A DNA stretch of 19,806 nt from a virus (lineage: Duplodnaviria; Heunggongvirae; Uroviricota; Caudoviricetes): IMG/VR virus record IMGVR_UViG_2711768067_000013, positions 1-19,806 of that record. One strand, written 5' to 3'. Both the position numbers and the translations under genes were made by a program. The notes beneath the pieces were generated by a model, which was not told the origin of the DNA, searched no databases, and saw nothing but the letters and a program-made list of their open reading frames with translations. Positions 528 to 18,546 of the stretch are shown here, piece after piece. Each line of letters starts with the position of its first letter. Position 1 is the stretch's first letter.

Positions 528-556
528 TTGATTTTAATGGTGCCGATAATAGGAGT
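528..556. repeat. Left direct repeat / candidate att site: 19-nt tRNA-Thr 3'-end core (538-556, tggtgccgataataggagt) plus ~10 bp of similar flank (ttgattttaa)
   Basis: Identical 19-mer recurs at 13601-13619, where it continues as a tRNA fragment; the upstream flank ttgatttt..taa is also shared with 13588-13600. The integrase gene starts ~140 bp to the right. Confidence 0.6.
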
Positions 557-698
557 AAAACACTCGATTAATCTCGTGTTAATGCCATCACCTACGACCA
601 TTACTAATTGATTGAATCTTATAGAAAAATCATCATTTTCTATGCGTCACAATCAATTTTCACATTACAAACGCTCCGACACTTTAGCCGGAGATTTT

Positions 699-1976: not shown

Positions 1977-1984
1977 ATGTAATA

Positions 1985-2018
1985 AAGAGGCTTCAATATA
2001 GACTGATGCCTCTTTTAT
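1985..2018. terminator. Bidirectional rho-independent terminator between the convergent int gene and the 225-aa gene
   Basis: Stem agaggc (1986-1991) pairs with gcctct (2008-2013) around a 16-nt loop, followed by TTTTAT on the plus strand and an A/T-rich tract on the minus strand. Confidence 0.45.
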
Positions 2019-2056
2019 GATTATCTCGTTACAGAGCGTTTCATAGGCGTTTAAGG

Positions 2057-2734
2057 CTATTGTTTAAATACTGGCGTTACAACGTCTTGCCCTGGGCTTT
2101 TTTGATTTTTCTGTTCTGTTGTATTTACCTGCATTTTAACCTGTCCCCCTACAGATTTATTTGGTGCTGTTTTTACCGCAATTGCGCTTGTAGTTGCTTT
2201 AGAGACAAGACGGATTTGCTCAAAATCAAGAGTAAACAATAGGCTTTCGCTTGCTTCTTCTTCATAAGACATGCCAACTAACACAACGTTGTCATAATTT
2301 TTTAACTCAGTGACAAGTAGGAAAGGTTGGCGACTGTCCATCAACTGATTTAGGTATTCAAGCATAAGCATACGTCTATTGCCGTTAATTCCCGCATTCT
2401 TAATCATATCGGGATTGAGCTTCAATACGGTTTCAGAGATACGCCCCTGTAATGTGAACTTGTTATTCCGTATTTGAACATGATCACTAACTTCTGATCC
2501 TGATTCGACAGCATAGCTTGTAACGTCTGCATTTCTGCTAATTTTCGTCGATTCCACGCTATCAAATGATAATGCCTGGTAGTCATTGTAAGCAGCATTT
2601 GCACCACTGCCGAGGTTAGAGGCAATGATCGCAAAGCCGTTACCCCCTTTAGTTGTTCTACCGTTGCTATCGTTGCTTGTGCTGTTGATTTTCGCCTCAG
2701 TCGGGCGACCAATGGTTAACGGACCCATTGCCAT
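2057..2734 (-). CDS. Hypothetical protein (225 aa), last gene of the structural-like block
   Basis: ATG at 2734 with AAGGA about 9 nt upstream; 48 bp after the stop of the 613-aa gene. No recognisable catalytic motif. Confidence refers to coding status, not function. Confidence 0.5.
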   Translation of the reverse strand: MAMGPLTIGRPTEAKINSTSNDSNGRTTKGGNGFAIIASNLGSGANAAYNDYQALSFDSVESTKISRNADVTSYAVESGSEVSDHVQIRNNKFTLQGRISETVLKLNPDMIKNAGINGNRRMLMLEYLNQLMDSRQPFLLVTELKNYDNVVLVGMSYEEEASESLLFTLDFEQIRLVSKATTSAIAVKTAPNKSVGGQVKMQVNTTEQKNQKSPGQDVVTPVFKQ

Positions 2735-2781
2735 AATTTGTAATCCTTATTTAAGGGGGCTAAACAGCCCCACAGTGATGA

Positions 2782-4623
2782 TTAATAGGTTGACCCGCCT
2801 GACATAACACCCAGCGTTAATAGCTTGCTAAACTCAGCGGAGGATGCCTTTGATTTGAAGTCGATAAATTCGCTCAATCGTCCGGTGTCTGATTCGATAG
2901 TTAGCGGCACTTCTGCATTTACTTGTAATTCTGGATTGAAGTTAATAACAGGTGCAAAGGTGTAAGAAGGAGCCTTGAAAGCTTGTTGTGCTGCACTCTG
3001 TTTCAGATTTGCAATGTTTTGTCCTTCGAGACTGTATTGATTTACAGCCTGCGCCCCACCTACCGTTTCTTCTGGCATAAACCAGCTTTTAATAGTGTTA
3101 ACCAGGGAATTGCTGTTATCTGGCTTAATTGTTCCGGTGCCAGCGCCTTTATATTGATCAGGAGTGAGATTAGAAAGATTCTGCTTCATTCCTTCGTTAG
3201 ATAGTGGCGGTGCATCCCCTAAATTCTTCTGAATAGCTTCCGTCTTCTCGTCGTTTTTCATCAGCCAGTTGATTGTTTTCATTACGGCGTTAACCAATCC
3301 GCCGATAGCCTCGCCTAATTTGGTAAACATTGGCAGCATTGCAACCATGCTCTTTTTAAACTCTTCAATCACTTTCGGATCAAGAGATTTCATAAAGCCA
3401 TCAACAAAGGCGATCCCTTGTGAGTCAGAAAGCCCACTAAGTGCATTATTCAGTTCACGGAATTTAATAACGCTTTCCTGTTGTGCCTGCGTTACCCAGC
3501 GCCCTGATTCTCGTTGTTCTCGTGCTGATTGTTCCACTTCTTTAGCGGAGCGTGTCCAGTATTTAGAGGTGAGCATCAAATCATCAGCCAGATCTTCCAG
3601 ACGACTACCGATTTGTGCATCTGAATAGCCTTTAGCTACCATTCCCTGAACTGCTTTACTAACCAGACCAGCCGGATTATCAGCAAAGTCTTTTAGATCC
3701 TTTTTAGTTAGGAATCCTTCATTCATTAAAGTATTGATGCCGCTATCGCCGCCCTTCCATTCTCCTTTACCAGTTTTCTTATCAACTACATATTCAGCTT
3801 CATCATAAGATTTGGTTGCACGTTCACGCACATCTTTCATCTGATCGAGATACTTACGTTTACCTTGTTCGCCCATCATTGAATCAACGCCGTTTTTATA
3901 CGCCCATTGCTCAATATTGTTCATCTGGTTAACGTCTACACCGCCCAGCTTGGCACGGCTATACAATTCACCCAGCGTTTCAGCATTCGCAAAGCTGTTA
4001 GTAACAAATTCAGAGGCTTTGCTCATAGCCATATATGCAGCGCCAGCGCCTAAGCCGCCCAGCATAACAGCCGCAGCACCGCCGCCAATACTCCCGCTAC
4101 CCTTAACAGGTGCATAGGCTTTAGCGTGAGCGTTACGATTGCCATTAATCTTACGTTGTTGCTGTTGTAGGCGTTTCATTTGGCTATTCATACGTGCCAG
4201 ACTAATAGCGCCTCTTTCATATTGGAGGGCAATTTCTCTAGCCTGTGCAATAGCTTTATATTGTTCCGCTACAGAAAGACGGTGCAATGCGCTAATGCTT
4301 GCTCCAACGTCTAAAAGCTTTAATTCAGCCTTCTCTTTCCGTGCTGCCAGGGCTTTTTGTTCTCTTGCAACTACACGTTGAGCGGCTAATTGTGCTTTAG
4401 CATTGGCTTTATCTGCCTGTGCTTGCTTTTTAGCAATATCGTCTACGTCTTTTTTTGCTTTAGCGGTTGATTGTTTATGTGTCTTAACACGCAATTCTAT
4501 ATCTTTCACCGCCGCCATTTGTTTACGAAGTTTTTCTACTTCTGCTTTTGCTTTCTCTAATGATGGTCGGTTAACTTCGAAGGTGACAACGTTCGAGAGG
4601 CGTGCCACGTTTAGCTCTAACAT
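2782..4623 (-). CDS. 613-aa protein with an N-terminal K/A/E/Q-rich coiled-coil region (~160 aa) and a Gly/Ala-rich hydrophobic segment (GSGSIGGGAAAVMLGGLGAGAAYMAM); tape-measure-like architecture, function unproven
   Basis: Long ORF with ATG at 4623 and AGGGA upstream. The composition resembles phage tape-measure or internal virion proteins, but this is an architectural impression only. Confidence 0.6.
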   Translation of the reverse strand: MLELNVARLSNVVTFEVNRPSLEKAKAEVEKLRKQMAAVKDIELRVKTHKQSTAKAKKDVDDIAKKQAQADKANAKAQLAAQRVVAREQKALAARKEKAELKLLDVGASISALHRLSVAEQYKAIAQAREIALQYERGAISLARMNSQMKRLQQQQRKINGNRNAHAKAYAPVKGSGSIGGGAAAVMLGGLGAGAAYMAMSKASEFVTNSFANAETLGELYSRAKLGGVDVNQMNNIEQWAYKNGVDSMMGEQGKRKYLDQMKDVRERATKSYDEAEYVVDKKTGKGEWKGGDSGINTLMNEGFLTKKDLKDFADNPAGLVSKAVQGMVAKGYSDAQIGSRLEDLADDLMLTSKYWTRSAKEVEQSAREQRESGRWVTQAQQESVIKFRELNNALSGLSDSQGIAFVDGFMKSLDPKVIEEFKKSMVAMLPMFTKLGEAIGGLVNAVMKTINWLMKNDEKTEAIQKNLGDAPPLSNEGMKQNLSNLTPDQYKGAGTGTIKPDNSNSLVNTIKSWFMPEETVGGAQAVNQYSLEGQNIANLKQSAAQQAFKAPSYTFAPVINFNPELQVNAEVPLTIESDTGRLSEFIDFKSKASSAEFSKLLTLGVMSGGSTY

Positions 4624-4657
4624 GTTAATTGTTTCCCTGTATTATGATTGTTGTTTG

Positions 4658-4855
4658 TTATTGTTTTTTAGAACAGTAGTATGTAATTGCTTCAAAAGTG
4701 CTGCATCCAGTCTGAAACACACGCTGCCGCACATTATTTGCATCAATTTCTAAAAGGCGGCAAAGCGCCGATGTGTTTATAACTGATTCCTCGCTAATAG
4801 CTGCCAGTTCTTTTACAGATTTAAGAATTAATGCCTGTGAATTTTCTGTATTCAT
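4658..4855 (-). CDS. Hypothetical small protein (65 aa)
   Basis: ATG at 4855 with a purine-rich stretch upstream; lies between the 343-aa and 613-aa genes on the same strand. Confidence 0.4.
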   Translation of the reverse strand: MNTENSQALILKSVKELAAISEESVINTSALCRLLEIDANNVRQRVFQTGCSTFEAITYYCSKKQ

Positions 4856-5018
4856 TGGTTTTCTCTCACATATATATTTTTATTTGGTTTTGTAGACAGT
4901 AGAAAAACAAAAAGGGCAAAGAGATTCGTTACTGTATTTGCGCCTACAGGTTAGTTAATCCCTTTACCCTTAGCCCCGATTATTTTCAGACGATGGGGAA
5001 TCGTCTATTAACGCTTTA

Positions 5019-6050
5019 TTACGCAGCAGATCCGAAGATGATAGCTTGCGGAATGTTGTTTACTGGCAGATAAGATGTCTCAGTAACCACAGATGGGAAT
5101 TGGAATTCATCCTTGATTAGATATTGGTGATGTAACACGGCATCTTGACCTAACTCAGCATGACGCACACCAACGCCGCTATGAAGCTGGTAACACTGTG
5201 CCGCTTTATCCATTACCGGAACAATTGCGAAACCGTTCTCTCCGATGTGAGCAACAATCTCAGGAAACATTGACACATCAATAGCAGTGATCCCGCCAAT
5301 CTGGAAAGAGTCATAGGCTGGGTTAGAATCAACCATACGGGTAAACAGGGCCGTAGCACTCGCATCACCTGCATATTTCACCATGTCACTGATCAGCGGG
5401 TTAGATGACAAACCATCAGCAGCAGCGCCAGCAGCAAAGATAATTACACCAGTTCGCTTTGCAGCAAGAGCAGACCCCAGCTTTTCACTCTGTAAGCGCA
5501 CCGCTTTACGAATAGCAAGGAACGGGTTAACAGTAGTCGATGCAAAGTCGATAGCGGGTACCGTGGTTTTAGCCTGACCGTCGAGGAAGTCGAGATCACC
5601 TTGTCCGGCATATTCAGATTCAACTTTCAGTCCCAGCAGCGCGGTAATCAGATCCACTTCAACACGGTTTGCGTGTGAACGGTAATGAGCCTCAGAGAAA
5701 TCATTAACCGCTACCAGCATAGCATCAGAACGGTTTGGATATTGGCGGCTGTATTGTTCCAGGTCACGAGAAGTAACAGCGTTAATACTGCCGACGTGTT
5801 TCATCTGGAAAAGTTTGTTTGACCATTCCTGACGTTTAGAGGCGTTCCAGTCGCTTTGAGCGTAAGGCGAGGTTTCCCCAGCTACCTGCACAAACTGATC
5901 AATCAGGTCGGTAAGAAGAATGCTGTTTTCTGTATGATATTGCACATCGAACAGATCGAGATTAGTAATCAGGGTATTAAGTGCATTCTCATAAGCAAAT
6001 GGAGTTACTACCGCAGTATTAACACCAAAATATGTTGATAAATCATTCAT
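5019..6050 (-). CDS. 343-aa hypothetical protein, candidate major virion structural protein (capsid- or tail-tube-like); function not established
   Basis: ATG at 6050 with AAGGAAAA 8 nt upstream, and only 14 bp after the upstream 127-aa gene. A stem-loop follows the stop (4988-5006). No enzymatic motifs; the call rests on size and gene context. Confidence 0.6.
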   Translation of the reverse strand: MNDLSTYFGVNTAVVTPFAYENALNTLITNLDLFDVQYHTENSILLTDLIDQFVQVAGETSPYAQSDWNASKRQEWSNKLFQMKHVGSINAVTSRDLEQYSRQYPNRSDAMLVAVNDFSEAHYRSHANRVEVDLITALLGLKVESEYAGQGDLDFLDGQAKTTVPAIDFASTTVNPFLAIRKAVRLQSEKLGSALAAKRTGVIIFAAGAAADGLSSNPLISDMVKYAGDASATALFTRMVDSNPAYDSFQIGGITAIDVSMFPEIVAHIGENGFAIVPVMDKAAQCYQLHSGVGVRHAELGQDAVLHHQYLIKDEFQFPSVVTETSYLPVNNIPQAIIFGSAA

Positions 6051-6064
6051 TATTATTTTCCTTG

Positions 6065-6448
6065 TTAAGTCGTAGGGATCGCAAGTTCTTCATAACCAGC
6101 AATTACAAAGCCGAGAGATTGCAGTTTTGCAATAACACTTGCCTTTTCCATGCTGTTAAATTCAATCCCATCTTCAGCCAGAATAACGAAAGTAGGATGT
6201 GCAACCACTACGCTTTCCTGTCCTTCATAAGCCGGTTCAACTACTACGTGAGCAATATCAGATGCGGTTGTTGCTTTGGTGCCATCGGCTTTCAGCAAAG
6301 CCCCGACAATAAGATCGTCAGTGAGAGGTGAAGCCAGTTTGACGAGGCGATCTTGCAGCACTGGATCAGCAGCGTAAGCTACTACCTTACAGCGTGAACG
6401 GGAGTTATCCGCATTCACTGCTTTTAATTTTCCATATGGGTTAGCCAT
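6065..6448 (-). CDS. 127-aa hypothetical protein, possibly a head-decoration or tail-terminator-like partner of the 343-aa protein
   Basis: ATG at 6448 with AAAGGAAAA upstream, an RBS context almost identical to that of the 343-aa gene; 4-bp gap from the upstream 65-aa gene. Confidence 0.55.
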   Translation of the reverse strand: MANPYGKLKAVNADNSRSRCKVVAYAADPVLQDRLVKLASPLTDDLIVGALLKADGTKATTASDIAHVVVEPAYEGQESVVVAHPTFVILAEDGIEFNSMEKASVIAKLQSLGFVIAGYEELAIPTT

Positions 6449-6452
6449 AAGA

Positions 6453-6650
6453 TTATTTTCCTTTCAGTTGTTTAATTTTAGATTTAAGGGCATCAGCAAG
6501 ACTAACCGCATCAGCCGATTTAAATAATTGAGCAGTGGTAGAACGAAGACTTTCGGGAGTAACTCCCAACAGTGCGGCAACCTTAATGAGGTTTTCATCA
6601 CTAACAATCATCGTTTCCCCGTCTTTGCTGATAATCATTTCTTGTTTCAT
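6453..6650 (-). CDS. Hypothetical small protein (65 aa from the ATG at 6650; the track ORF extends to a TTG at 6692)
   Basis: ATG at 6650-6648 with AGGAA 9 nt upstream; first gene after the terminator-like hairpin at 6682-6731. Confidence 0.45.
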   Translation of the reverse strand: MKQEMIISKDGETMIVSDENLIKVAALLGVTPESLRSTTAQLFKSADAVSLADALKSKIKQLKGK

Positions 6651-6681
6651 AAATAACGTTCCTGTTAGTGCCAGACAAATA

Positions 6682-6731
6682 AAAAGCCCCAATGCCGTAA
6701 GAGGTTAATTCTGACCAGCAAAGGGGCTTTA
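6682..6731 (-). terminator. Terminator-like hairpin immediately upstream of the structural-like block (minus-strand sense)
   Basis: AAAGCCCC and GGGGCTTT arms (6682-6690 and 6724-6731) around a ~33-nt loop, followed on the minus strand by TTTTTATTT. The large loop makes this a weak call. Confidence 0.3.
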
Positions 6732-7326
6732 ACGTGCGGGCAATTACATAATTGATAAGTTAAACTATAAGAGGATTAAACATATCAGCAAATACACTTT
6801 TTAAATATACTTGATGATATGCTTAAAGGGTGAATAGATACTCCTGAAAACATGCTCTTAGGAAAACATGCGGAATCAATCAGGAATATCTATTCGGGGC
6901 GCGGTGGCCAACCGCTATCTTTCATGGTGTGGATGCACCAGTCAGATTTTAAGGAATCACTATTCCAATCTACTCACAGATTAAATTTTTAATAATGATT
7001 AACTACACCAACAGTAATCTACCGTTTCAGAAAATCGTTTTTACAACCAAAGCTTATAGATCCGCATTCTATAAAACCCGTTTTGCTATCAATATTTCCA
7101 AAGGTTATTGCACAATTCTTAGCTAAACTCTCTACTTGCGGCTAACGCTACGCAGATGATAGTTTTTTGACAACAACTTAATAGATTATTCTGTTACTAA
7201 CTTCTGTCATTAAATAAGAGTTTAATGATGTTAGTAAATAGTTATAAAATATAACTATCAGTGTAAGGCTCTTTAATGTTTTCGGACAAAATAAGGAGCT
7301 TTAGGATAAGCATAGATGAAAATAAG

Positions 7327-7364
7327 AGCGGGAAGGGCAAGGAGATAACACCTACCCGCTTTTA
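7327..7364. terminator. Bidirectional terminator-like hairpin in the 930-bp spacer
   Basis: agcgggaagg (7327-7336) pairs with cctacccgct (7351-7360) with one mismatch; T-tracts follow on both strands (TTTTAT plus; CTTATTTTC minus). It lies ~270 bp downstream of the 102-aa gene in minus sense. Confidence 0.4.
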
Positions 7365-7633
7365 TCAAAATTAAGCACAATGCCTAACAACATTCATCAA
7401 CACAACGTAGAAACAATCAACAATCAAAGAGGGAGTTATGATTATTCTAAAACTTCTTGAGGGGATGGAAGGTAATATTTGTTAGAGGTTAATGCCACTC
7501 AACCCTTGAGGCTATCACCTTCCATATGCAGGGATTTATGACAGTAGAAGGATTAACACCAGTCAAAACCTTTTTATCTACCCCTAATATCATTATATAA
7601 TGAAATTGTTATAAATGCAAATGATTTTCATTA

Positions 7634-7942
7634 TCACTTAGAAGAAATAGCACTTTTTGCTAAATCATCTACTAATTGCTGAATCTCTTCACTTGCAGCC
7701 TTTAACGTGCTGGCGCTGCTGCTGATGGTTTGAGTGCACAGCCTGGCATCGTCCTCTGATAGCTCTAAATCGCTCACCAGAGAGATAAAATCGTCAAGGC
7801 TTACATTCACCTTCATTAAGCTAATAACGCATTGAGAGAGCGTGTAATCGCATAAATCTGAATAGGCTTGATTTATTCTTGTTTGTAGTGAGATAGTCAG
7901 ATCTAAAAGTTGTTCCATTGCATTGCTAATATCTTCTTCCAT
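7634..7942 (-). CDS. Hypothetical acidic protein (102 aa)
   Basis: ATG at 7942 overlaps the stop of the upstream 67-aa gene (TAATG), suggesting translational coupling. Confidence 0.5.
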   Translation of the reverse strand: MEEDISNAMEQLLDLTISLQTRINQAYSDLCDYTLSQCVISLMKVNVSLDDFISLVSDLELSEDDARLCTQTISSSASTLKAASEEIQQLVDDLAKSAISSK

Positions 7943-8145
7943 TATGCGGCTTCTCCTTGTAATGCATCATTAATCATATTCAATACGATGTTAAAAGGTG
8001 TCTTGAGCGTCAGCACTTCATCACGATAACGCTCTAATGCTTCGTAGTCTTCTGTTTCTTTTGCCAGTCGGATTAACTCAGCATAGTTTTTTGCATCAGA
8101 CAGGATCATCTGAAATAATTGTGTTTCCTGTATATGGTCGATCAT
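7942..8145 (-). CDS. Hypothetical protein (67 aa)
   Basis: ATG at 8145 with AAGGAA 6 nt upstream. Confidence 0.5.
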   Translation of the reverse strand: MIDHIQETQLFQMILSDAKNYAELIRLAKETEDYEALERYRDEVLTLKTPFNIVLNMINDALQGEAA

Positions 8146-8162
8146 TGTTGTTCCTTTTATTT

Positions 8163-8549
8163 TTAGTTTGAACGTTTGTTAGATGCGAGAGTGTCGATCA
8201 GGTGCTGCATCAGATCTGTTTCTGTAACGCCGCCTACCTGATTGTTGAAACTATTAAAACCGATATAGTGCCTGTAGCTGGTAAAATTTAACAGCTGCCA
8301 TTTCTTTAATGTGCCAGGTTCTATAATCGTTGTCTTTCTTGTTCTGGGTTTGAAATACACACCATCACCCATTGATTGAATAATTTCTAATTCTTCGTTT
8401 GTAAGTGGTGGGCTGTTAGATTCTAAAATGAAGATTATCTCTTCCCCTGGAATTTCGTTATTGGTGTGTGTCGGTGGACGTTGTCTTGTTGAATTGAAGT
8501 TACTGTTTTTTTCAATACGTTTTAAGTTGTTCTTTTTCTTTCTTCCCAT
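8163..8549 (-). CDS. Hypothetical protein (128 aa), basic N-terminus
   Basis: ATG at 8549 with AGAGGGA upstream. Confidence 0.5.
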   Translation of the reverse strand: MGRKKKNNLKRIEKNSNFNSTRQRPPTHTNNEIPGEEIIFILESNSPPLTNEELEIIQSMGDGVYFKPRTRKTTIIEPGTLKKWQLLNFTSYRHYIGFNSFNNQVGGVTETDLMQHLIDTLASNKRSN

Positions 8550-8645
8550 TTTCCCTCTTTTTATGTGGATTATAAAAACTGAATGCCATAGTTACGATGA
8601 ATATCGCCATAAATGCATTTGCCATATGTATTGCCCGATCTGTTG

Positions 8646-8903
8646 TTATTGATTGTTTGTGATAAACAATTCAAAATCTTTGTTTAATTTCAAAAGACGA
8701 AATGTAGTGTGGTTAATCCCTTCATAATCCAGCACACCGAACGATGTAAAATGATTTACGTGTTGTGCGCTGTAGCCGCCTAAACTACAAAAGCTAACCA
8801 CTGTCGGTGGTGAAAACTCTATTTCCAAAATAGCTTTTAAAATGTTGTATCCGCTTTCAGTTATTTCAATAGTTTTGTTTCCTATAGTGATGTTATAAGT
8901 CAT
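8646..8903 (-). CDS. Hypothetical protein (85 aa)
   Basis: ATG at 8903 with AAGGAG 6 nt upstream. Confidence 0.5.
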   Translation of the reverse strand: MTYNITIGNKTIEITESGYNILKAILEIEFSPPTVVSFCSLGGYSAQHVNHFTSFGVLDYEGINHTTFRLLKLNKDFELFITNNQ

Positions 8904-8912
8904 TTATTCTCC

Positions 8913-9587
8913 TTAGAATGGTATTGAATCGTATATTTCACTTTTTTCTCTTAGAGATATTATCAGATCGTGAAAAGCCTGTTTCTCAAGATAGATATTC
9001 TTTGAATCTAATGCTCGTTTTACAAAATCTTCTGTTTCTTCGTGCGGTGGCTTCTTGTTATCAAGGGAAAGAAGCCAGTTAAAAATCTTTTCCGGGAACT
9101 CTGATTCCTGTATTTCTTCTTCAACGATGATTTCTGAAACATTCAATATTTCATTAGATTCGTTTTCTTTCTCAGAAGGATCAGGTAGTGATGACTCTCT
9201 AGGGGGAGTAATATGTGCATCTGTGAGAGGTAGCGCACGTAATTTTAATGGACGTTTTGGGATTCGTTCTCCGACCTCTTCTAAAAGACCGATTTTAATC
9301 ATAAGACCAATCAATTCATTAACTGTCTTACGGCTACAGCCACAAACTTTACTTAACTTCGTTTGTGTTTCAAAACATATCCCCCCTGATTTCTCCCAAT
9401 CTGAAACATAGCAATATAATTTTTGCATTTCTGCACTAAACTTCGCTTTTCCATCCTCAATATTTGAGGAGTAGATGAATTCAATCTCACAAAAGTAGTG
9501 TGGTATATTCAAAGTTCGGTCTTTAATTTCTCCTGTTTGTTGATCAACATACTGGTATTTTTCACGAATCAATTTAATTTTAGACAT
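8913..9587 (-). CDS. 224-aa putative DNA-binding protein (winged-helix-like segment SRKTVNELIGLMIKIGLLEE); candidate regulator or replication-initiator-like protein
   Basis: Track ORF 8913-9644 starts at GTG; the ATG at 9587 has a strong AAGGAG 8 nt upstream. The C-terminal half is acidic. Function is inferred from the motif only. Confidence 0.5.
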   Translation of the reverse strand: MSKIKLIREKYQYVDQQTGEIKDRTLNIPHYFCEIEFIYSSNIEDGKAKFSAEMQKLYCYVSDWEKSGGICFETQTKLSKVCGCSRKTVNELIGLMIKIGLLEEVGERIPKRPLKLRALPLTDAHITPPRESSLPDPSEKENESNEILNVSEIIVEEEIQESEFPEKIFNWLLSLDNKKPPHEETEDFVKRALDSKNIYLEKQAFHDLIISLREKSEIYDSIPF

Positions 9588-9640
9588 TAGAATTATCTCC
9601 TTATAAATCACGCTTAATGCGCTACTAAAGTGAATGAGGA

Positions 9641-9808
9641 TCACTTACCCTTTTTTTGTTTGATGTTCTCTGCTGCTTCAGTAATGATTTCTAACATCAA
9701 ATCACTGACCATAATTTGCCTTTTCTTGGCTTCAGCAAATAAAATCTTGAAAATTTCAGGGTCAACGTGTAGGTAAGTGCGTGGAATTGGTTTCTTGGTT
9801 TCGCTCAT
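9641..9808 (-). CDS. 55-aa ribbon-helix-helix-like small protein (MSETKKPIPRTYLHVDPEIFKILFAEAKKRQIMVSDLMLEIITEAAENIKQKKGK); absent from the ORF track because it is under 60 aa
   Basis: Hand-translated: ATG at 9808-9806 with AGGAGAAGGAG upstream, TGA at 9643-9641. A predicted strand followed by two helices fits Arc/CopG-type repressors. Confidence 0.45.
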   Translation of the reverse strand: MSETKKPIPRTYLHVDPEIFKILFAEAKKRQIMVSDLMLEIITEAAENIKQKKGK

Positions 9809-9829
9809 AGTTTTCTCCTTCTCCTGTTA

Positions 9830-10012
9830 TTATTCTTTCTCTGCTCCTGCCTTACGCAGTTCATCAATAATTTTTAGTGCATCGTCAAAACATTTTTCAC
9901 GCTCTGGATAACCACAGCGTCGCGCTGTGTTCCTGTTCATCCTTACTTTAAAACGATTGATCTCACCACGTTTCCAGGCTTCAACTACATCCTGGGGAGT
10001 GAAATACTTCAT
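9830..10012 (-). CDS. Hypothetical protein (60 aa), first gene of the minus-strand array
   Basis: ATG at 10012 with AGGAGG 7 nt upstream; 21 bp before the RHH-like ORF. Confidence 0.5.
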   Translation of the reverse strand: MKYFTPQDVVEAWKRGEINRFKVRMNRNTARRCGYPEREKCFDDALKIIDELRKAGAEKE

Positions 10013-10134
10013 TAATTAACCTCCTATTCTATTTGGTTAAAAGAAAAAACACCTTGCAAGCCTTGTTGGGCTTCAAAGTGCGGTGCATTGGTTTAATTAC
10101 TTAGAGGATAAGAATGTTTTCTGTCCCTAATATT

Positions 10135-10163
10135 ACTTTACCACGACTAAAAGCTTTTGTCAA
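10135..10163 (-). promoter_or_regulatory. Candidate sigma70 promoter for the minus-strand array (TTGACA, 17-bp spacer, TAAAGT)
   Basis: Minus-strand TTGACA is the reverse complement of 10158-10163; TAAAGT is the reverse complement of 10135-10140. Motif match only. Confidence 0.3.
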
Positions 10164-10324
10164 CCCCTATCCATAAAAATATTGATCATTTTCAGTGTGT
10201 TATAATTTTTCTTAGCAATTCGTGCTCTTACGGGTGCTCCTATTCTTCCTTATTCTCTAAAACGCTCTAAAACGCCCTCTGACGAGGTTTTGATAAATAC
10301 AATACATTCACTTATGTAGAGGCT

Positions 10325-10780
10325 GTTTAGCTCGCCAGAGGCTTATTTAAGGGGCTTATTTTGTATTTGTTAGGTATATGGGAAGATGATGATAGATAAA
10401 ATCTAATTTCAGACATCTTATAAAATACCTGTAAAGCTCCTCAGAAGCTCTATAACGAGCTAATCTATTACCGCTAAGTGTTTCCCTGCCTTATATACGT
10501 TTAGCTCGCCTACGGCTTGATTTAAGCGGTAGAATCTTATTTAACCTTCAACTACTAAAACCATTCTTTCTTTTTTGTTTGTTGTTGGTTGTTGTCTGTG
10601 TCTATGTGCTAACATCGCTAACGCGTAGCACACAAGGTTATTGCACTCGTCAGAGTATTGCACAATAGATTTTCTCTTAAATAGATTGATGATCGTTAGA
10701 TTGGCGTAAGCCTCATCAATGGAACTATTGAAGCGCACAGCGCAAGACTATTTAGCCTTACGCAAGCCGTAGGCTATTTG
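10325..10780. repeat. Repeat family in the noncoding region: two direct ~28-31-bp copies (10325-10352, 10499-10529) and one inverted, itself palindromic copy (10749-10780)
   Basis: Copy 1 gtttagctcgccagaggcttatttaagg; copy 2 gtttagctcgcctacggcttgatttaagcgg; copy 3 reverse complement contains GCCTACGGCTTG. A TTG/TGT-rich tract (about 10565-10610) and several CTAAC pentamers lie between copies 2 and 3. Confidence 0.5.
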
Positions 10781-10961
10781 CACATAGTAGATTACATATT
10801 CGTTGTGAGCGGCATTAGCGAACATATATCTACTAACTAACATCAACAAACAAAAACTATGTGTTATGACAAGCAGTCTAACGACTAACACTCTAACTTG
10901 TGCAAGGTTCTGGCGAATGCCAATAGATTAAGGGATAGTCAAAGACTCCCTAACGGGTATA

Positions 10962-11045
10962 CCTATAATTATTCTTATAAAGATAAAAAAGAATTATATT
11001 ATATAGTTTAATAGTTAGTTTTATTATTAGTATTATAGATGTTAG
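10962..11045. other. Very AT-rich tract next to the iteron-like array; candidate DNA-unwinding element
   Basis: About 85 bp of almost pure A/T directly upstream of the palindrome array. Confidence 0.35.
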
Positions 11046-11053
11046 TCTTATTG

Positions 11054-11224
11054 TGTAACCTTTCGTTACAACCAATCATCTGCCGATGTAACGTATCGTT
11101 ACTACCGATGTGTAATATCGTTACATTCAATAATTAGTCTATGTAACGAATCGTTACTACAAAATTTCTTACAGAGAGTATTTCAGATAGCTGAATGTAA
11201 CCCATCGTTACATCCATCGTTACA
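11054..11224. repeat. Iteron-like array: five palindromes with a TGTAAC / GTTACA core (11054-11070, 11087-11103, 11111-11125, 11142-11158, 11196-11212) plus an extra half-site (11216-11224); two units form a tandem 22-bp repeat (11083-11126)
   Basis: Read directly, for example TGTAACctttcGTTACA, GTAACGtatCGTTAC, GTAACGaatCGTTAC and TGTAACccatcGTTACA. Could be a replication origin, a recombinase res-like site or a repressor operator. Confidence 0.6.
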
Positions 11225-11661
11225 TCCATTTATCACATAACATCTGTGCAATGATCTTCTAAAAGTGTTTCTTACTATCAAAAATTAAACATCTAAAACA
11301 GGCTTAAATTCAATGTAATTGATGATTAATCCCTGTGTAATTCCTACGTAAAAATTCAATGAAAAGTAGCTTAAAAGTGCAATTCTTACTTTCTTCACTT
11401 TTACATCACTTTCGCAAAGCCTTGTGTAATGCGGCATATAGCGCATCACTGCAAAATTGTTGCTCAATAAACGTTCTATCATTTGTCGAACAAGTTTTCT
11501 TTAATGCAACAAAAAATTATTTTTTCAAAATAAACACACCATTTAATAGCTTGCTAATTTTACCAAAACGTAACTACATGCTTCTCATGCAAGACGTGTA
11601 GTGATAAAGCAGGCTAAATCACCACACTAAAAACCTTCGAATTTCGTAGTGAAAAAAGTCC

Positions 11662-11691
11662 TTTACACACCTAATCAACACGATCAATAAT
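11662..11691 (+). promoter_or_regulatory. Candidate promoter for the serine recombinase (TTTACA, 18-bp spacer, AATAAT)
   Basis: Motif match ~35 bp upstream of the ATG at 11727. Confidence 0.3.
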
Positions 11692-11726
11692 CACTACACA
11701 CAAATCAACACAGAAGGAAAATGAAA

Positions 11727-12278
11727 ATGGCTAATATTGGATACATTAGGGTATCGACTGTGCAACAAAACACAGACCGTCAATTAGCTGGAGTAACTCT
11801 TGATAAAGTCTTTGAAGATAAAGCGTCAGGCAAGAACACTCAGCGCCCACAGTTTGAGGCAATGATGAACTATGTGCGGGAGGGTGACGTGTTACACGTC
11901 CATAGTATTGATCGCCTTTGTCGTAATACAGCCGACCTTCTGGCAACGGTTGAGCAATTAACAGAGCGCGGCGTGTCTGTGCATTTCCATAAAGAAGACT
12001 TTAAGACAGGGAAGAACTCTCCCGCAGGGAATATGATGCTCACAGTGCTTGCAGCAGTGGCACAAATGGAACGTGAAATGATGCTTGAGCGGCAACGTGA
12101 AGGGATCGCCGCAGCTAAGGCCGCTGGGCGTATAGCAAAACGTGGTAATGGAAAAGCAATTGATCGAGCAGGAATTGCTGCCGCTCTCGCGAATGGTGGA
12201 TCAATTCGGAGCGTAGCAAAAGATTTCAGTGTCAGCACACAGACGGTGCAACGTATCAAGAAAGAGCAGGAAGCGTAA
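11727..12278 (+). CDS. Small serine recombinase (resolvase/invertase family, ~183 aa)
   Basis: N-terminus MANIGYIRVSTVQQNTDRQ carries the resolvase catalytic-Ser motif; a C-terminal helix-turn-helix-like region (SIRSVAKDFSVSTQTVQRIKK) follows. The ATG at 11727 is better spaced from the AAGGA than the ATG at 11721. Confidence 0.85.
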   Translation: MANIGYIRVSTVQQNTDRQLAGVTLDKVFEDKASGKNTQRPQFEAMMNYVREGDVLHVHSIDRLCRNTADLLATVEQLTERGVSVHFHKEDFKTGKNSPAGNMMLTVLAAVAQMEREMMLERQREGIAAAKAAGRIAKRGNGKAIDRAGIAAALANGGSIRSVAKDFSVSTQTVQRIKKEQEA

Positions 12279-12618
12279 TGCCTCCTGATATTTGAGAATT
12301 GTCGCTGCGTGGACCTGACGCCGCTGATCTTCTCGTTAAGCGATGATCACGTATGCGCCGATTTCAGAGAAAAAGACAGTAACTGAACTCACTATGAAGG
12401 CTAAACGCATCTTTACACTTGATGAAAACGTTCAAAAAACAACCTAACCCCAAAATTCAACAAATTGCAACACATTGTTTTTAAAAGAAAATTAAATCTA
12501 CATCAAATATTGGTTGACGTAGATTGAGGTGAATAGTAGACTATTAGGGTAAATTACCACCCTTGCAACATCATTTAATGCATGTTCTAATCTTCCTATC
12601 GTAAAACCGGAGGAAGTT

Positions 12619-12777
12619 ATGCATTTACTTTCAAAACATCTTCACACTATTCACTTTCTCGTTATTGATGTATTCGTTGTGGCTATTAGTTACCGCATTT
12701 GCATCGCTTCCAGTGAAGAGATGGACGCTGTTGCAATTATTGCTCAAGCAATGGCGATGTTAACTAAACGACTTTAA
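12619..12777 (+). CDS. 52-aa small hydrophobic protein (MHLLSKHLHTIHFLVIDVFVVAISYRICIASSEEMDAVAIIAQAMAMLTKRL); not in the ORF track
   Basis: ATG at 12619 with GGAGGA 5 nt upstream; contains a predicted membrane-like helix. Confidence 0.4.
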   Translation: MHLLSKHLHTIHFLVIDVFVVAISYRICIASSEEMDAVAIIAQAMAMLTKRL

Positions 12778-12843
12778 TAATTTCACTATCAGGTGCATAA
12801 ACACATCTTTGATCGCTGGATGTGTTATGCGCCTACTGGTGGT

Positions 12844-12996
12844 TCAATCCTTAAGCCATTTCAACTCACTAAGGAGTTTTCTTTCTTCGTTCTCTCGCTG
12901 TTTACGCTCTAGCCAGGCTTTTCCCTCTGGCGTAGACAGGAACTTACGAGCGTGAATCTTGCGGTTATTACGTTTTATAGCTGCAATGTTTTTCAT
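12844..12996 (-). CDS. 50-aa highly basic small protein (MKNIAAIKRNNRKIHARKFLSTPEGKAWLERKQRENEERKLLSELKWLKD); not in the ORF track
   Basis: Hand-translated: ATG at 12996-12994 with GAGG upstream, TGA at 12846-12844. Convergent with the 52-aa ORF. Confidence 0.4.
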   Translation of the reverse strand: MKNIAAIKRNNRKIHARKFLSTPEGKAWLERKQRENEERKLLSELKWLKD

Positions 12997-13600
12997 CGTG
13001 TGCCTCTGTATTCATATGAAAATTAACAAGTTACATACTACACAGGGAGACTACGCATAAAACACAATACAAGTAAAGATACATTTTCAAGACAATAGGA
13101 GCCATAAAGCGCCTTTGATGGTTATACCAAAAAATAAGCGCCGTAGGCGTATCCACTAAAAGGGCTTTTTCACAAAAGCTATGAAGTCTTAGCAGTTCTT
13201 CTCTTATCAGGCACCCGTTGTACTCCGGTGGACGAAACCGTGCTAGAGCTTGATTCTTTCCCGATCAAGTTAGGTTTTGAAGAGGTGGGCTTTGATCCAC
13301 TATTGCACTTAAAACTCTTCCCATCATTTAGCCTGTTTATCCTCTGCAACGTCTCACGACGTGTAGCATCATTGGACACCGCGCCAGGTGTGGAACATCT
13401 TGCTAAGAGTTTTGGTAGAAGGTTTAGAGACGGTGGCACGTCTTCCAGCTTCAAAGGAACTTGTTACGAGGTTGAGCCTGGGAACTACTCGCCCATACGT
13501 GTTACACTACCAAAGCCCATAACAACGTATAGGCGTTTGTAAGTGATAACAGAAGATACAATTTCTTAGAGAAGTTAAGCTAAGTTATTGATTTTCTTAA

Positions 13601-13646
13601 TGGTGCCGATAATAGGAGTCGAACCTACGACCTTCGCATTACGAAT
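13601..13646 (-). tRNA. Truncated tRNA-Thr (CGU anticodon) 3' fragment, 46 nt (anticodon loop through T-arm, acceptor 3' strand and CCA); att-site remnant, not a functional gene
   Basis: Reverse complement reads ATTCGTAATGCGAAGGTCGTAGGTTCGACTCCTATTATCGGCACCA, with the GGTTCGA T-loop and CCA end; sequence diverges from tRNA after 13646. As I recall it, this matches the 3' part of E. coli thrW. Confidence 0.7.
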
Positions 13647-13951
13647 TATAAGAATCCGCTTCTAATTCAAAGCATTACCCCATCAACACTGCGCTCACAC
13701 GTCCCACCACATCAAAACATGTAAAGCCTTGCAAGCCATTGCGAGGCCTTATGTGTCTCAGTTTTGTCCCACCTTGTATTACGACTTACATAGCCAATGA
13801 AGATAAACGTGACGACAAACGGCGCAGCAGTCTTCTTTTCCTTCATACTTTCCCCACCCAGCATGCATACCTTTATGCCATAACTGAAGTTTATGTCTGT
13901 TATGAGCGAAAAGCAGACATTACACTAAATTATTTAGGTTTACTTTTATCA

Positions 13952-14824
13952 TTACATTTCTAATGCTTTTTCTCTGCTAATTGATCCTTCACCATTGCAG
14001 GTTCTGCAATCTAATTTTATATTCCTGCAGTCAGGACAAGTAAATTTTTCATAATTAGAAAGATTCACCTTTGCAGCAATATATCTTTTTACGGATCCCA
14101 TTCCATTACAGATCGGACAATCTTCTCCCGCTAAACTGCCTTTTCCATTACATAAAGGGCAAGTTACAGTGGATATCACTTCATTTTCATTTTCATAAAT
14201 AAAATTGTTGAAATTTTGGGCGTTTATTGTGCTTAGTTGAACTTTTTCAATTTTTTTTATGTGATGTTCAAAATACTTTTTAATTGCCTTCTTAAGATCC
14301 TCTTTAGACGATTTCCATTGTTCTGGTGAGATCCTAATCGATTGAAATCCTTCGTTACTAGTTATTACTGCATCACGCTTGTAAGTAGACTTAATTTTAC
14401 TTTCCACATAATGAGCTATGTGGCCATCATACTCGATGCCAATAGCAGCAATCTCAACCAAATCTTGACCAATCCATCTATTTAGTCTAAGGACAAGGTC
14501 TATTGCCCAAGGCTGGGCTTTTGGGTTTATATTGCCAACCTTATACTGAGGCTCGATATAAACAATATGTCCGTTTGGGAATTGACCTTTCAGAGTTATT
14601 CGTCGTGGTGAATTTTGAAAACTATCGATTTCCAATGGACTAAACTGAGATATGAGGCCGGCAATTACCTCTATCTCAGCCTGAGATGTTTTTTCCACTC
14701 CTTGTAAACTAATAAGACCGATAGCTACTTGACGGTTAGTGGCTGGCTCAATCCTTTTAAATAGTTTCTTCTGATTATTACTAAAATTATTTTTGATAAC
14801 TTCAAGTGTTTCATCTAGTTCCAT
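13952..14824 (-). CDS. PD-(D/E)xK-type nuclease-like domain fused to a C-terminal DnaJ-type zinc finger (four CxxCxGxG-like repeats)
   Basis: Track ORF starts at GTG 14833; an ATG lies at 14824. Candidate nuclease motif D...IGIEYDGHIAHY (DUF559/Vsr-like). C-terminus has CPLCNGKGS, CPICNGMGS, CPDCRN and CRTCNGEGS. AT-rich gene. Confidence 0.65.
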   Translation of the reverse strand: MELDETLEVIKNNFSNNQKKLFKRIEPATNRQVAIGLISLQGVEKTSQAEIEVIAGLISQFSPLEIDSFQNSPRRITLKGQFPNGHIVYIEPQYKVGNINPKAQPWAIDLVLRLNRWIGQDLVEIAAIGIEYDGHIAHYVESKIKSTYKRDAVITSNEGFQSIRISPEQWKSSKEDLKKAIKKYFEHHIKKIEKVQLSTINAQNFNNFIYENENEVISTVTCPLCNGKGSLAGEDCPICNGMGSVKRYIAAKVNLSNYEKFTCPDCRNIKLDCRTCNGEGSISREKALEM

Positions 14825-14928
14825 CTCACCCACTCTATAAACTGATTATCCATATAAACTACATTATCATTTTTAACTGCTCAACATAGATTAACATAGC
14901 GCGATGCTAACAGTGTCAACTCCTGGCA

Positions 14929-14950
14929 CAGGGCTGTTGTTGCAGCCCTG
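14929..14950. other. Perfect 8-bp palindrome with 6-nt spacer (CAGGGCTG ttgttg CAGCCCTG) between the recombinase stop and the nuclease-ZnF gene
   Basis: Read directly; no flanking T-tract on either strand, so probably not a simple terminator. Confidence 0.5.
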
Positions 14951-14956
14951 ACAACC

Positions 14957-15559
14957 TTAGACTTCAATCGATTCAGAGATCTCTAACACATCATCTACTT
15001 CAATACCCAGATAACGGACTGTGCTTTCCAGTTTCTTATGGCCCAACAGAAGTTGGATCACCCGAAGATTCTTGGTTTTCTTGTAGATCAGGTAAGGTTT
15101 TGTTCTTCTCATGGAATGAGTGCTGTAAAGCGAATCTTCGAGACCAAGCTTTTCTACCCACCCATGAAAAATTCGGTTGTATTGCCGGGTAGATATGAGC
15201 TGATTAGTTCCGACCAGAAACCGAAACAAGAAGTCTTTACTATGCAAATTGCCAAGCATTATCAATGCAGCAACAGCTTCTCTTGTCCCTTTGGTTATCT
15301 CAAACTGCACAGGGCTACCGGTTTTCTGTTGCAGCACCGTAGCTCTGCTTGAAGCAGAGCTACCATATGCAACATCAGATACTTTGAGTTTGACCAGATC
15401 ACAGCCTCGTAGCTTACTGTCCAGGGCCATATCGAACTGAGCTAAATCGCGCGTTTTATCTTCCAGTTCAAGCCGGATTCGGATCCCCCAGATATGAGAT
15501 ATCTGAAGTGGTCTTTTTTGGCCGATGATACGGTCTTTGTTCCACGGTGACGTGTTCAT
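14957..15559 (-). CDS. Short tyrosine recombinase (~200 aa, catalytic domain only, FimB/FimE-like size)
   Basis: Track ORF starts at TTG 15613; the ATG at 15559 has AGGAGA upstream. Catalytic signatures: LRGCDL (Arg), HSMRRT (His-x-x-Arg), LLGH, and TVRYL (Tyr). No N-terminal arm-binding domain. Confidence 0.8.
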   Translation of the reverse strand: MNTSPWNKDRIIGQKRPLQISHIWGIRIRLELEDKTRDLAQFDMALDSKLRGCDLVKLKVSDVAYGSSASSRATVLQQKTGSPVQFEITKGTREAVAALIMLGNLHSKDFLFRFLVGTNQLISTRQYNRIFHGWVEKLGLEDSLYSTHSMRRTKPYLIYKKTKNLRVIQLLLGHKKLESTVRYLGIEVDDVLEISESIEV

Positions 15560-15595
15560 ACTCAAATCTCCTGCAATGTGGGAGATTTGAGTATG
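15557..15595. promoter_or_regulatory. Perfect 15-bp inverted repeat with 9-bp spacer (CATACTCAAATCTCC tgcaatgtg GGAGATTTGAGTATG) covering the recombinase Shine-Dalgarno and start codon
   Basis: Arms 15557-15571 and 15581-15595 are exact reverse complements. In the minus-strand mRNA the hairpin would sequester GGAG and AUG. Confidence 0.5.
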
Positions 15596-15765
15596 GTTGT
15601 CCCTTATGAGCAAATCGCAGACGTAACATCAAGTTCATAGCTACCCTGGAGCACCTTATTATCCTGTATAACGATAAGTTGGGAAGCCAGTGGCCTCACA
15701 GTGTCCCCAAGATGGTGGTGTCTCTGCACCAAAGATGCGCTAGTTCAAATGTTAGTAAATATAAT

Positions 15766-16677
15766 TTATATGTAATCAGGTAGTGAATTCAAAGCCATCA
15801 CTCTTTCTCTTTCTTTTTCTGTCATTTCTCTCATAACAATTTGAGATAGCGCTAATGTTATCTCCTTTGTTTTATTGAAGGCTTCTTTGGTATATGTTTT
15901 CCTTCCATACTCAAGTTCATTAAATGTCCCCATAATCCATTTGAGATAGAATAATGGGATGGCTAGATCACTTATATCCTGCCATCTCGTAATCGCTTTA
16001 TATTCATTCCAAAAATAATCCTCAAAATGCTTATCACAATCACCTTTACACGCATAATAAACCGCTATCACCTCATTTGGTTTGTCATCGTGTATGATCT
16101 CTGCATTGCACACAATGCCATCATAATTTTCTTCATGATGGTTTTCTATTAAGTCCTTTCCACAACGATCACATTTTATAGGTAAGTACTTATCAAAAAT
16201 CAAATGCTTGGGTTTTATTTTTTTATAGCTCTCAGGAAAGTATCTAAGGAGTAGTTTTGAGTAACCAATTCTGACTAAGTGATTTTCAATTAATTTACCA
16301 TCAAAGAATCGAAAGTCCTTTATTTTTCCATTCTCTTTTAATTGCGTCATTCTTGAATTTAAACCACTACTTGGCAGTGTTGAGTAAAATCCAATAAATC
16401 CGTCGGCATTGAATCCATCAATACGTTCTTGTATATTAATCTCATCCTTTTCTGAAACTGATTTTTTACTTGTTGCATAATGTTTACAGCTAACAAGCCA
16501 ACGAAATTTATATTTATTTAACTGACCTTGCAATTGCTCTGTGATTAAAAGATCTTTACCTCCATCTGCACCTCTATCTGGCGCGGATTCAATATAAAAG
16601 CCAAGTTCTTCAAGAAAATCACGGGCAAATGACTCCCAGGCTTCACCGTCACTATCAATTTCAGTAAAGTTAATCAT
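15766..16677 (-). CDS. Mrr-like (type IV restriction endonuclease catalytic fold) N-terminal domain fused to a Cys/His-rich C-terminal domain (303 aa)
   Basis: ATG at 16677 with GGGAG 9 nt upstream. N-terminal motifs RGADGGKDLLI and WLVSCKHY fit the Mrr_cat pattern. The C-terminus has CDRCGKD, CNAEI and CKGDCDKH. AT-rich gene. Confidence 0.65.
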   Translation of the reverse strand: MINFTEIDSDGEAWESFARDFLEELGFYIESAPDRGADGGKDLLITEQLQGQLNKYKFRWLVSCKHYATSKKSVSEKDEINIQERIDGFNADGFIGFYSTLPSSGLNSRMTQLKENGKIKDFRFFDGKLIENHLVRIGYSKLLLRYFPESYKKIKPKHLIFDKYLPIKCDRCGKDLIENHHEENYDGIVCNAEIIHDDKPNEVIAVYYACKGDCDKHFEDYFWNEYKAITRWQDISDLAIPLFYLKWIMGTFNELEYGRKTYTKEAFNKTKEITLALSQIVMREMTEKERERVMALNSLPDYI

Positions 16678-17054: not shown

Positions 17055-17924
<870 letters not shown>

Positions 17925-17984: not shown

Positions 17985-18546
17985 TCATTTATCTCCGACC
18001 GGAAACTTCTTATACAGTGTCGATATACCAACATCATAGATGATCGCCACCTTCTGGCGAGGAACGCCTGATGCAATTAATCGTCCGGCCTGCTCCCATT
18101 GTTCTGGTGTAAGTTTGGGACGACGTCCACCAATTCGTCCCTGTGCGCGAGCAGCTTCCAGTCCAGCTTTTGTTCGTTCAACAATCAGTTCACGCTCCAT
18201 TTCAGCCAGGGCACCCATCACATGAAAGAAAAAGCGCCCCATTGGGGTACTGGTATCAATTGAATCCGTCAGACTACGAAAGTTGATGCCTCGTTCGCGC
18301 AACTCCTCCACCAGCACGACAAGATGCCGCATACTGCGCCCCCAGTCTGTCCAGCTTCCAGACAACCAGCGTGTCTCCTGCCGATAGTGTCCTGAGCAGC
18401 TTTTTCAGCCCCGGTCTGTCGGACTTGGTGCCACTGATTTTATCCTCAAAAATCCGCTCACATCCCGCACAGTTCAGTGCATTGCGTTGCAAATCGGTGT
18501 TCTGGTCATTTGTTGACACGCGTACATAGCCAATAAGCATGATCAT
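17985..18546 (-). pseudogene. pin: Pin/Gin/Hin-family serine DNA invertase, disrupted by a +1 frameshift in a C5 run (18339-18343, plus strand)
   Basis: N-terminal ORF (18274-18546) reads MLIGYVRVSTNDQNTDLQ…WKLDRLG, then goes out of frame. C-terminal ORF (17985-18365) reads …GRSMRHLVVLVEELRERGINFRSLTDSIDTSTPMGRFFFHVMGALAEMERE…. Removing one G from the GGGGG run restores WKLDRLGRSMRHL. May be a sequencing error. Confidence 0.7.

Follow-up and report, generated by a model that had tools for sequence, protein, structure and literature searches.

A predicted Vsr/DUF559-type nuclease joined to a DnaJ-type zinc module on mobile DNA: a candidate one-gene defence protein

The minus-strand gene at 13952..14824 of the window (the whole 19,806-nucleotide stretch of DNA that was analysed) encodes a 290-aa protein predicted to combine a Vsr/DUF559-type PD-(D/E)xK nuclease core with a C-terminal zinc module of the DnaJ cysteine-rich type. 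With a probability of about 60%, we regard it as a self-contained, one-gene defence nuclease that would be either modification-dependent or trigger-activated. A preliminary description had proposed the fusion of a PD-(D/E)xK-like nuclease with a DnaJ-type zinc finger, and this architecture is supported by the fold model, by the motifs and by profile matches of the zinc domain. We favour a role in defence because of the motifs and fold, the stand-alone nature of the gene, its hotspot locations, its rarity, its low G+C content, its DefensePredictor score and the modularity of its relatives.

The coding sequence spans 873 nt (290 codons from the ATG, plus stop), with an in-frame GTG three codons upstream of the ATG, at 14833. 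A RefSeq CDS of the same extent (WP_000417871.1) is found in eight complete E. coli genomes out of 5,426, intact and with 99.4-99.9% nucleotide identity across the eight. The concern that this might prove to be a common, characterised family with a role outside defence was not borne out, as the gene is rare and annotated as a "hypothetical protein". Its G+C content is ~36%, compared to ~51% in the host. A word-indexed search of 5.8 billion proteins returned homologues in 31 clusters, originating from Vibrio, Photobacterium, Pseudomonas, Pseudoalteromonas, Delftia and metagenomes. Conservation was scored on an alignment of 26 homologous sequences, down to 31% identity, in which S47, E50, Q93, D109, E131, Y132, D133, G134, H138, E141, K145, Y148 and R150 are invariant. 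We conclude from this comparison that the WP_000417871.1 ORF is a real gene under selection; its most conserved parts are the nuclease and zinc motifs. Scans of the window against Rfam and for tRNAs were empty, and the promoter scan upstream of the gene gave nothing convincing.

The gene occurs rarely and patchily. When 185,579 species genomes were scanned for a motif pattern, 6 loci emerged, a figure that is an undercount because the scan used a single peptide pattern; tblastn against 50,697 phage genomes reported zero homologues, and 72,556 plasmids contained no full-length homologue. This distribution effectively refutes the reading of the protein as a housekeeping Vsr-type DNA-repair endonuclease, which is also contradicted by the consistent location of the gene on mobile or variable DNA with no link to a cytosine methyltransferase (dcm), and by a sequence similarity to E. 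coli Vsr that is not significant.

The AlphaFold2 model, built on the 26-sequence alignment (mean pLDDT 87.9, pTM 0.67), comprises four helices (residues 3-58), a β-rich core (65-165), an uninterrupted helix (167-211), a short disordered link (212-215) and a zinc-type module (219-290). The N-terminal four-helix region (aa 1-60; 14645..14824, minus strand) carries the invariant S47 and E50 and found no match in the family-model search; in the model, helix 48-58 may represent the first core helix of the nuclease fold. The segment that follows (aa 61-166; 14327..14644, minus strand) is predicted to form the Vsr/DUF559-type core, with strands 65-70, 75-82, 86-96, 106-118 and 121-132, helix 136-158 and strand 161-165, and displays the core α/β fold typical of restriction endonucleases. 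Comparison of the fold model with known structures reported 3hrl (NGO0050, DUF559-like, with 92/94 of its residues aligned; score: 9.4), the RAP domain of FASTKD4 (score: 8.5), the homing endonuclease I-Bth0305I (score: 8.2), AbaSI (score: 7.9), Vsr (score: 7.8), Bax1 (score: 7.8) and PvuRts1I (score: 6.7). Structure prediction had been suggested as a check of the initial assignment, and the confident model indeed matches DUF559/Vsr-type nucleases. The BFVD structure search returned weak nuclease-fold matches only.

The D...IEYDG motif that had been noticed in the N-terminal region, and likened to that of DUF559/Vsr-type endonucleases, is present (D109, I130-G134); D109 and E131-G134 are invariant in the 26 homologues, and the motif agrees with the fold model. 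D109 (14498..14500, minus strand) is located on the strand corresponding to the "PD" strand and, judging by the motif spacing, would occupy the position of D51 in Vsr. The invariant ExDG...H motif, E131-Y-D133-G-H-I-A-H138 (14411..14434, minus strand), reads I130-E131-Y132-D133-G134-H135-I-A-H138 in its context, and H138 follows E131 at a distance of seven residues (+7), just as H69 follows F62 in E. coli Vsr. The expected succession of a conserved acidic residue on the second core strand and an ExDG..H motif on the next strand is therefore present. In profile searches for the PD-(D/E)xK assignment, the Pfam family MTES_1575, which has the restriction-endonuclease fold, matched the protein (21.5 bits, below the curated cut-off of 38.2) and 16 of the 26 family members, but all of these matches are below threshold, and the Pfam models of DUF559 and Vsr gave no match. 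A profile of the nuclease part compared with all PDB chains retrieved no solved nuclease, only a spurious antibody match, and hhalign gave no significant similarity between this profile and either YcjD (DUF559) or Vsr of E. coli. The nuclease prediction therefore depends on the predicted fold combined with a short motif, and from these we infer that the N-terminal two thirds of the protein form a metal-dependent endonuclease of the Vsr/DUF559 type. Were the fold catalytically inactive, the protein could act as a DNA- or protein-binding regulator of its mobile element, e.g. a Q-like or repressor-like one operating via the zinc module. We find this quite improbable, given that the acidic and histidine residues expected at an active Vsr/DUF559 site are all invariant across the family and that the gene is tied to no single type of element or regulatory position.

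In the model, the nuclease core is linked to the zinc module by a single 45-residue helix (aa 167-211; 14192..14326, minus strand), which is likely to be a stalk or a coiled coil. The module (aa 219-290; 13955..14170, minus strand) resembles the DnaJ cysteine-rich domain and anti-TRAP and comprises two units of two CxxC knuckles each. The four motifs read from the sequence are C222-P-L-C-N-G-K-G (14138..14161), C236-P-I-C-N-G-M-G (14096..14119), C263-P-D-C, which lacks GxG (14027..14038), and C273-R-T-C-N-G-E-G (13985..14008), all on the minus strand. Four CxxCxGxG-like repeats had been reported here; all four knuckles do occur in the C-terminal ~70 aa, but only three are full CxxCxGxG motifs and the third is a bare CxxC. 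All eight cysteines of the protein fall within residues 222-276, and among the 26 sequences C222, C225, C236, C239 and C263 are invariant, while C266, C273 and C276 are kept in at least 90% and missing only in the truncated homologue P0026.

The Pfam model DnaJ_CXXCXGXG (PF00684) matches the protein with an E-value of 2e-6 (28.4 bits, below the curated cut-off of 32.7) and also matches 19 of the 26 family members. Among solved structures, the family profile identified the DnaJ zinc domain (1exk, 3.5e-6), full-length DnaJ (6jzb, E-value 1.3e-3, collinear with all four DnaJ motifs) and anti-TRAP (E-value 0.05, collinear with its two motifs). NCBIfam DnaJ models match residues 212-289 only (31 bits vs. 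a cut-off of 338), and the family-model searches found neither a J domain nor DnaJ_C in the protein. Identification as a DnaJ (Hsp40) chaperone was therefore ruled out, as the J domain and the C-terminal substrate-binding domains are absent. PF27659, which some homologues match, proved to be CHP02642 (TIGR02642) and was set aside, as it matches only the zinc part, and faintly. Because relatives carry 3, 5 or 7 units, the units appear to be independent, which suggests that every two-knuckle unit may hold a separate zinc ion through adjacent cysteine pairs, in the manner of anti-TRAP; an interleaved arrangement (1+4/2+3) as in DnaJ would likewise be collinear with the two-unit form.

When 1.84 billion cluster representatives were searched exhaustively with an HMM, 217 matches were obtained, which fall into four classes. 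The first comprises ~30 full-length relatives with exactly two zinc units each. The second includes ~12 paralogues of 240-260 aa (P0045, P0055, P0062, P0081 and others) that keep the N-terminal region, the EYDG motif and the long helix, with the zinc module replaced by a short cysteine-free tail bearing a common "(T/I)PDF(V/E)" motif; P0046 and P0112 are longer paralogues with other C-termini. The third class numbers ~60 members, 350-570 aa long, in which 3-7 copies of the ~41-residue zinc unit come after an HNH_2 domain at the N-terminus. The fourth comprises proteins of ~365 aa, which are end-to-end members of the PADLOC PDC-M01B sub-model PDLC04253 and carry a near-identical two-unit tail on an HNH domain. 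Two unrelated families of HNH nucleases therefore bear the zinc module as well, with array sizes of 2-8 units. For one of the HNH multi-zinc-unit relatives, from Methylobacterium, the genomic context was uninformative. By sequence comparison, three nuclease cores with no relationship to one another have acquired the module, which is a portable accessory, and the Vsr/DUF559-type core in turn accepts different C-terminal domains. Because the module is shared with HNH families and the paralogues possess other tails, it looks swappable, in the manner of a sensing or targeting domain. Seven proteins from this search (P0125, P0132, P0147, P0155, P0158, P0162 and P0177) are free-standing, 80-120 aa in length, and consist of the two-unit zinc module alone; they might be forms of the module that act in trans, or might inhibit it.

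The window corresponds to the E. coli E275a locus at 99.9% identity, except for a 13-kb insertion at 535-13607. In the window and in E275a alike, the gene is located next to paoD and is the outermost one of a prophage that carries Mu-type tail genes and an e14-like segment with pinE and tail-fibre genes. The chromosomal flank at 13700-13922 (223 bases) is common to ~3,900 E. coli genomes, which places the junction of prophage and chromosome no more than 30 bp from the gene's stop codon. Regions 13608-13923 and 1-534 belong to the conserved E. coli chromosome and comprise the paoD end and a fragment of a LysR-family gene. The insertion encodes a 454-aa tyrosine integrase (612-1976), tail-fibre-like and tape-measure-like proteins (2057-4623), a replication-initiator-like HTH protein (8913-9644) and a resolvase (11721-12278), and might represent a phage satellite or what is left of a small prophage; it also encodes a 343-aa protein with no family match, which could be a capsid protein.

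Inward from the gene follow a tyrosine recombinase, an Mrr_cat protein, a capsid gene fragment, a PD-T4-3 homologue and a frameshifted pinE. The short recombinase (200-218 aa, with a catalytic domain but no N-terminal domain; 14957-15613, minus strand; PHROG integrase, E-value 2.8e-26) sits between the two nuclease genes and is not conserved beside homologues elsewhere. The 303-aa Mrr_cat protein (15766-16677, minus strand) has an N-terminal Mrr_cat nuclease domain (E-value 2.3e-5) and a C-terminal half with CxxC and CxxxC pairs and no family match; it has no PADLOC or PHROG match and is not among the DefensePredictor entries listed. It is the second uncharacterised nuclease-plus-cysteine-rich protein of the islet. 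A functional unit made of our gene, the adjacent recombinase and the Mrr_cat gene was considered and rejected, because homologues with 84-88% identity have entirely different neighbours. The PD-T4-3 homologue, 2.3 kb from the gene (17100-17924, probable start at 17151, plus strand), is full-length and contains a LEM-3-like GIY-YIG domain; it is the sole PADLOC match among the adjacent genes of the window (E-value 2.7e-140), and PD-T4-3 itself is a validated defence gene. The pinE-type invertase is split into two ORFs (17985-18546, minus strand), with a frameshift marked by RefSeq in E275a, so that inversion of the tail fibre has probably been lost and the prophage may be defective.

Analyses of genomic context revealed that the gene has been placed repeatedly in recognised defence sites. 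In V. parahaemolyticus it is one cassette of the superintegron: the locus L003 contains 23 attC-type repeats beginning TAACAAAGC, and the gene (8001-8855 of that locus) lies between the repeats at 7806-7930 and 8857-8984, so close to both that no space is left for a second gene. A single ORF between attC sites in an array was observed for the Vibrio homologue only, and not in the window. In Photobacterium the gene adjoins a divergent IntI-like recombinase. An 88%-identical copy immediately adjoins a P4-type integrase at smpB, within an element that also encodes Ogr/Delta and AlpA; in V. splendidus a copy lies between gpA (Phage_GPA)/Ogr and the portal gene of a P2-like prophage; and an 84%-identical copy is present on a P1/P7-like contig. 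Further copies share small islets with genes for SIR2_2 and an ATPase, HEPN_RiboL-PSP, BrnT, Mrr_cat, PDC-S31 and a NucC-like nuclease. The P2 gpA-portal (old/tin) and P4 psu-int intervals are antiviral hotspots described by Rousset et al. (PMC9122126), and integron arrays are documented stores of defence cassettes (10.1101/2024.07.02.601686; 10.64898/2026.03.17.712381). Two integron-screen papers do not mention this protein. Location in hotspots is an association, and such sites also hold cargo unrelated to defence. In two distant hosts the islet is located a few kb from a PaoABC-type molybdenum oxidoreductase operon (12840-16539 of locus L006 in P. aeruginosa, 8590-12427 of locus L001 in E. 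coli), which is probably a coincidence.

An all-against-all comparison of the neighbours in 11 loci found none in common, and the existence of a conserved partner gene was rejected on this basis. This observation bears on the reading of the protein as a toxin, i.e. an addiction module that stabilises its element or an abortive-infection toxin acting without specific sensing of the phage. Toxin-antitoxin-like genes (BrnT, HEPN_RiboL-PSP, RES-Xre) do occur in nearby cassettes and islets, and integron arrays are known to carry stabilising toxin-antitoxin cassettes. The Vibrio cassette, however, has neither an antitoxin gene nor room for one, no neighbour is conserved, and the intactness of the gene in the eight E. 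coli genomes argues that it is tolerated alone; we therefore judge a toxin to be unlikely. The same contexts speak against a selfish, homing-type enzyme that would drive its own spread in the manner of the Vsr-fold endonucleases of phage introns (I-Bth0305I). All copies are free-standing and none is inside an intron, an intein or a conserved host gene; in Vibrio the gene is an ordinary integron cassette mobilised by attC sites; elsewhere it occupies variable hotspots whose contents differ between strains; and the tblastn search of phage genomes found no copy at all. With these observations, homing becomes very improbable.

In the searchable literature (queried for the accession, for PDC-M01 and for a DnaJ-type zinc finger with a nuclease in defence) neither the protein nor its architecture is described, in keeping with the initial remark that the architecture is not known from a described defence protein. 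Table S10 of DefensePredictor (PMC13092281) covers 3,000 E. coli strains and lists WP_000417871.1 as predicted_defensive TRUE in the category "Predicted novel defense gene" (log-odds: mean 5.98, minimum 1.56, maximum 7.93), with zero coverage by known defence profiles or structures. The protein is absent from Table S6 of that study, which lists the units selected for experiments. As DefensePredictor partly uses genomic context, its score is not fully independent of the argument from location.

For the preferred reading, a one-gene defence nuclease, we infer nuclease activity, zinc binding, oligomerisation through the helix and a role in defence. The enzyme would protect its carrier (a prophage, a satellite or an integron-bearing host) against phages or other foreign DNA. 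The Vsr/DUF559-type domain would serve as a metal-dependent DNA cutter, and the 45-residue helix would project the C-terminal pair of zinc knuckles; to judge solely from its length, the helix probably also mediates dimerisation, which would allow two catalytic domains to cut both strands. The cassette contains no methyltransferase, antitoxin or partner gene, which leaves the enzyme two ways of sparing its own genome. It could (a) cut only DNA with a foreign feature, e.g. a modified base, that would be recognised through the zinc module, as in the layout of AbaSI and PvuRts1I, or (b) lie dormant until a protein or nucleic acid derived from a phage is bound by the zinc module, and only then degrade DNA, following a Shedu-type logic. 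We give the two options roughly even odds. DnaJ-type zinc domains are known as protein-binding modules and not as DNA-binding ones, which weakens option (a) and slightly tilts the balance to a protein trigger.

A more specific and rather unlikely version of the trigger is that the zinc units are a chaperone-derived sensor that switches on the attached nuclease. They would bind a phage protein or a non-native polypeptide accumulating in infection, much as the cysteine-rich domain of DnaJ binds its clients. Host DnaJ is reported to be required for phage sensing by bNACHT25 (PMC12169576), a finding that bears on the chaperone-derived sensor only. If such a sensor exists, three unrelated nuclease families would have recruited the module independently, and it would constitute a general "proteostasis-sensing" input of bacterial immunity.

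Should the one-gene defence nuclease prove protective, it would represent a compact system of 873 bp with an architecture absent from validated systems, and would single out a small zinc module that has been joined to different nucleases on repeated occasions in evolution. The target of the module would answer how a lone nuclease avoids its own genome and whether chaperone-type zinc knuckles sense infection. The family offers a cheap test case, being a natural single-gene integron cassette that is also found in the P2 and P4 hotspots of enterobacteria.

Among known proteins, the DUF559/Vsr-type endonucleases (3hrl NGO0050, E. coli Vsr 1cw0, MTES_1575) resemble the window protein in predicted fold and in motif; the latter protein adds ~60 N-terminal helical residues, the 45-residue stalk helix and the zinc module; unlike Vsr, it has no dcm link, and the two show no significant sequence match. 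The type IV enzymes AbaSI and PvuRts1I have the same layout, in which a Vsr-like domain at the N-terminus cleaves and a domain at the C-terminus recognises the target. Their recognition domain is, however, SRA-like in place of the pair of CxxC zinc knuckles found here, there is no relationship at the sequence level, and the C-terminus of the window protein gave no match to an SRA-like domain recognising modified cytosine.

PDC-M01B proteins of the PDLC04253 sub-model (e.g. P0131 and P0135) possess the same C-terminal module and preceding helix, with the tail "CPRCRGDC..CDLCKGMG...DCPRCD..LDCDICNGKGTISLDKA" in a near-identical layout. The PADLOC match of the window protein to PDC-M01B (E-value 6e-15) covers residues 176-289 against profile positions 269-362, whereas true members match end to end with E-values of 1e-116 to 1e-131. 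Their catalytic domain, over the first ~280 residues, is HNH and not Vsr-like, and most PDC-M01B sub-models (~280 aa) have no zinc module. PDC-M01 is moreover a two-gene candidate, while the window gene stands alone and a PDC-M01A partner was not found. Membership in PDC-M01B was therefore rejected: the match is to the module only, with no HNH domain and no PDC-M01A neighbour. The uncharacterised HNH_2 nucleases (P0137, P0047, ~60 cluster representatives) carry the same unit at the C-terminus, CxxCxGxG-x5-7-CxxCxGxG with a "vDLSxY/F" linker, but have a different nuclease fold and many more units (3-7). The CxxCxGxG zinc-knuckle motifs are shared also with the DnaJ cysteine-rich domain and anti-TRAP; compared to DnaJ, the window module is located on a nuclease and on mobile DNA, its third motif lacks GxG, and J and DnaJ C-terminal domains are absent.

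In general design the window protein recalls Shedu (bioRxiv 10.1101/2023.08.10.552793) and other single-protein defence nucleases with variable sensor domains, in which one gene encodes an unvarying nuclease core together with accessory domains that can be exchanged; the Shedu core is DUF4263 and not homologous to the protein studied here. DS-38, which was validated in the DefensePredictor study (PMC13092281; Table S8 entry for HEP2), joins HEPN to a different zinc-finger array and is analogous in design, not homologous. The protein has already been flagged by machine learning, and lone nucleases that bear an added sensor domain are well known in defence; the novelty is in this particular domain combination and in the recurrence of one small zinc module on three nuclease families.
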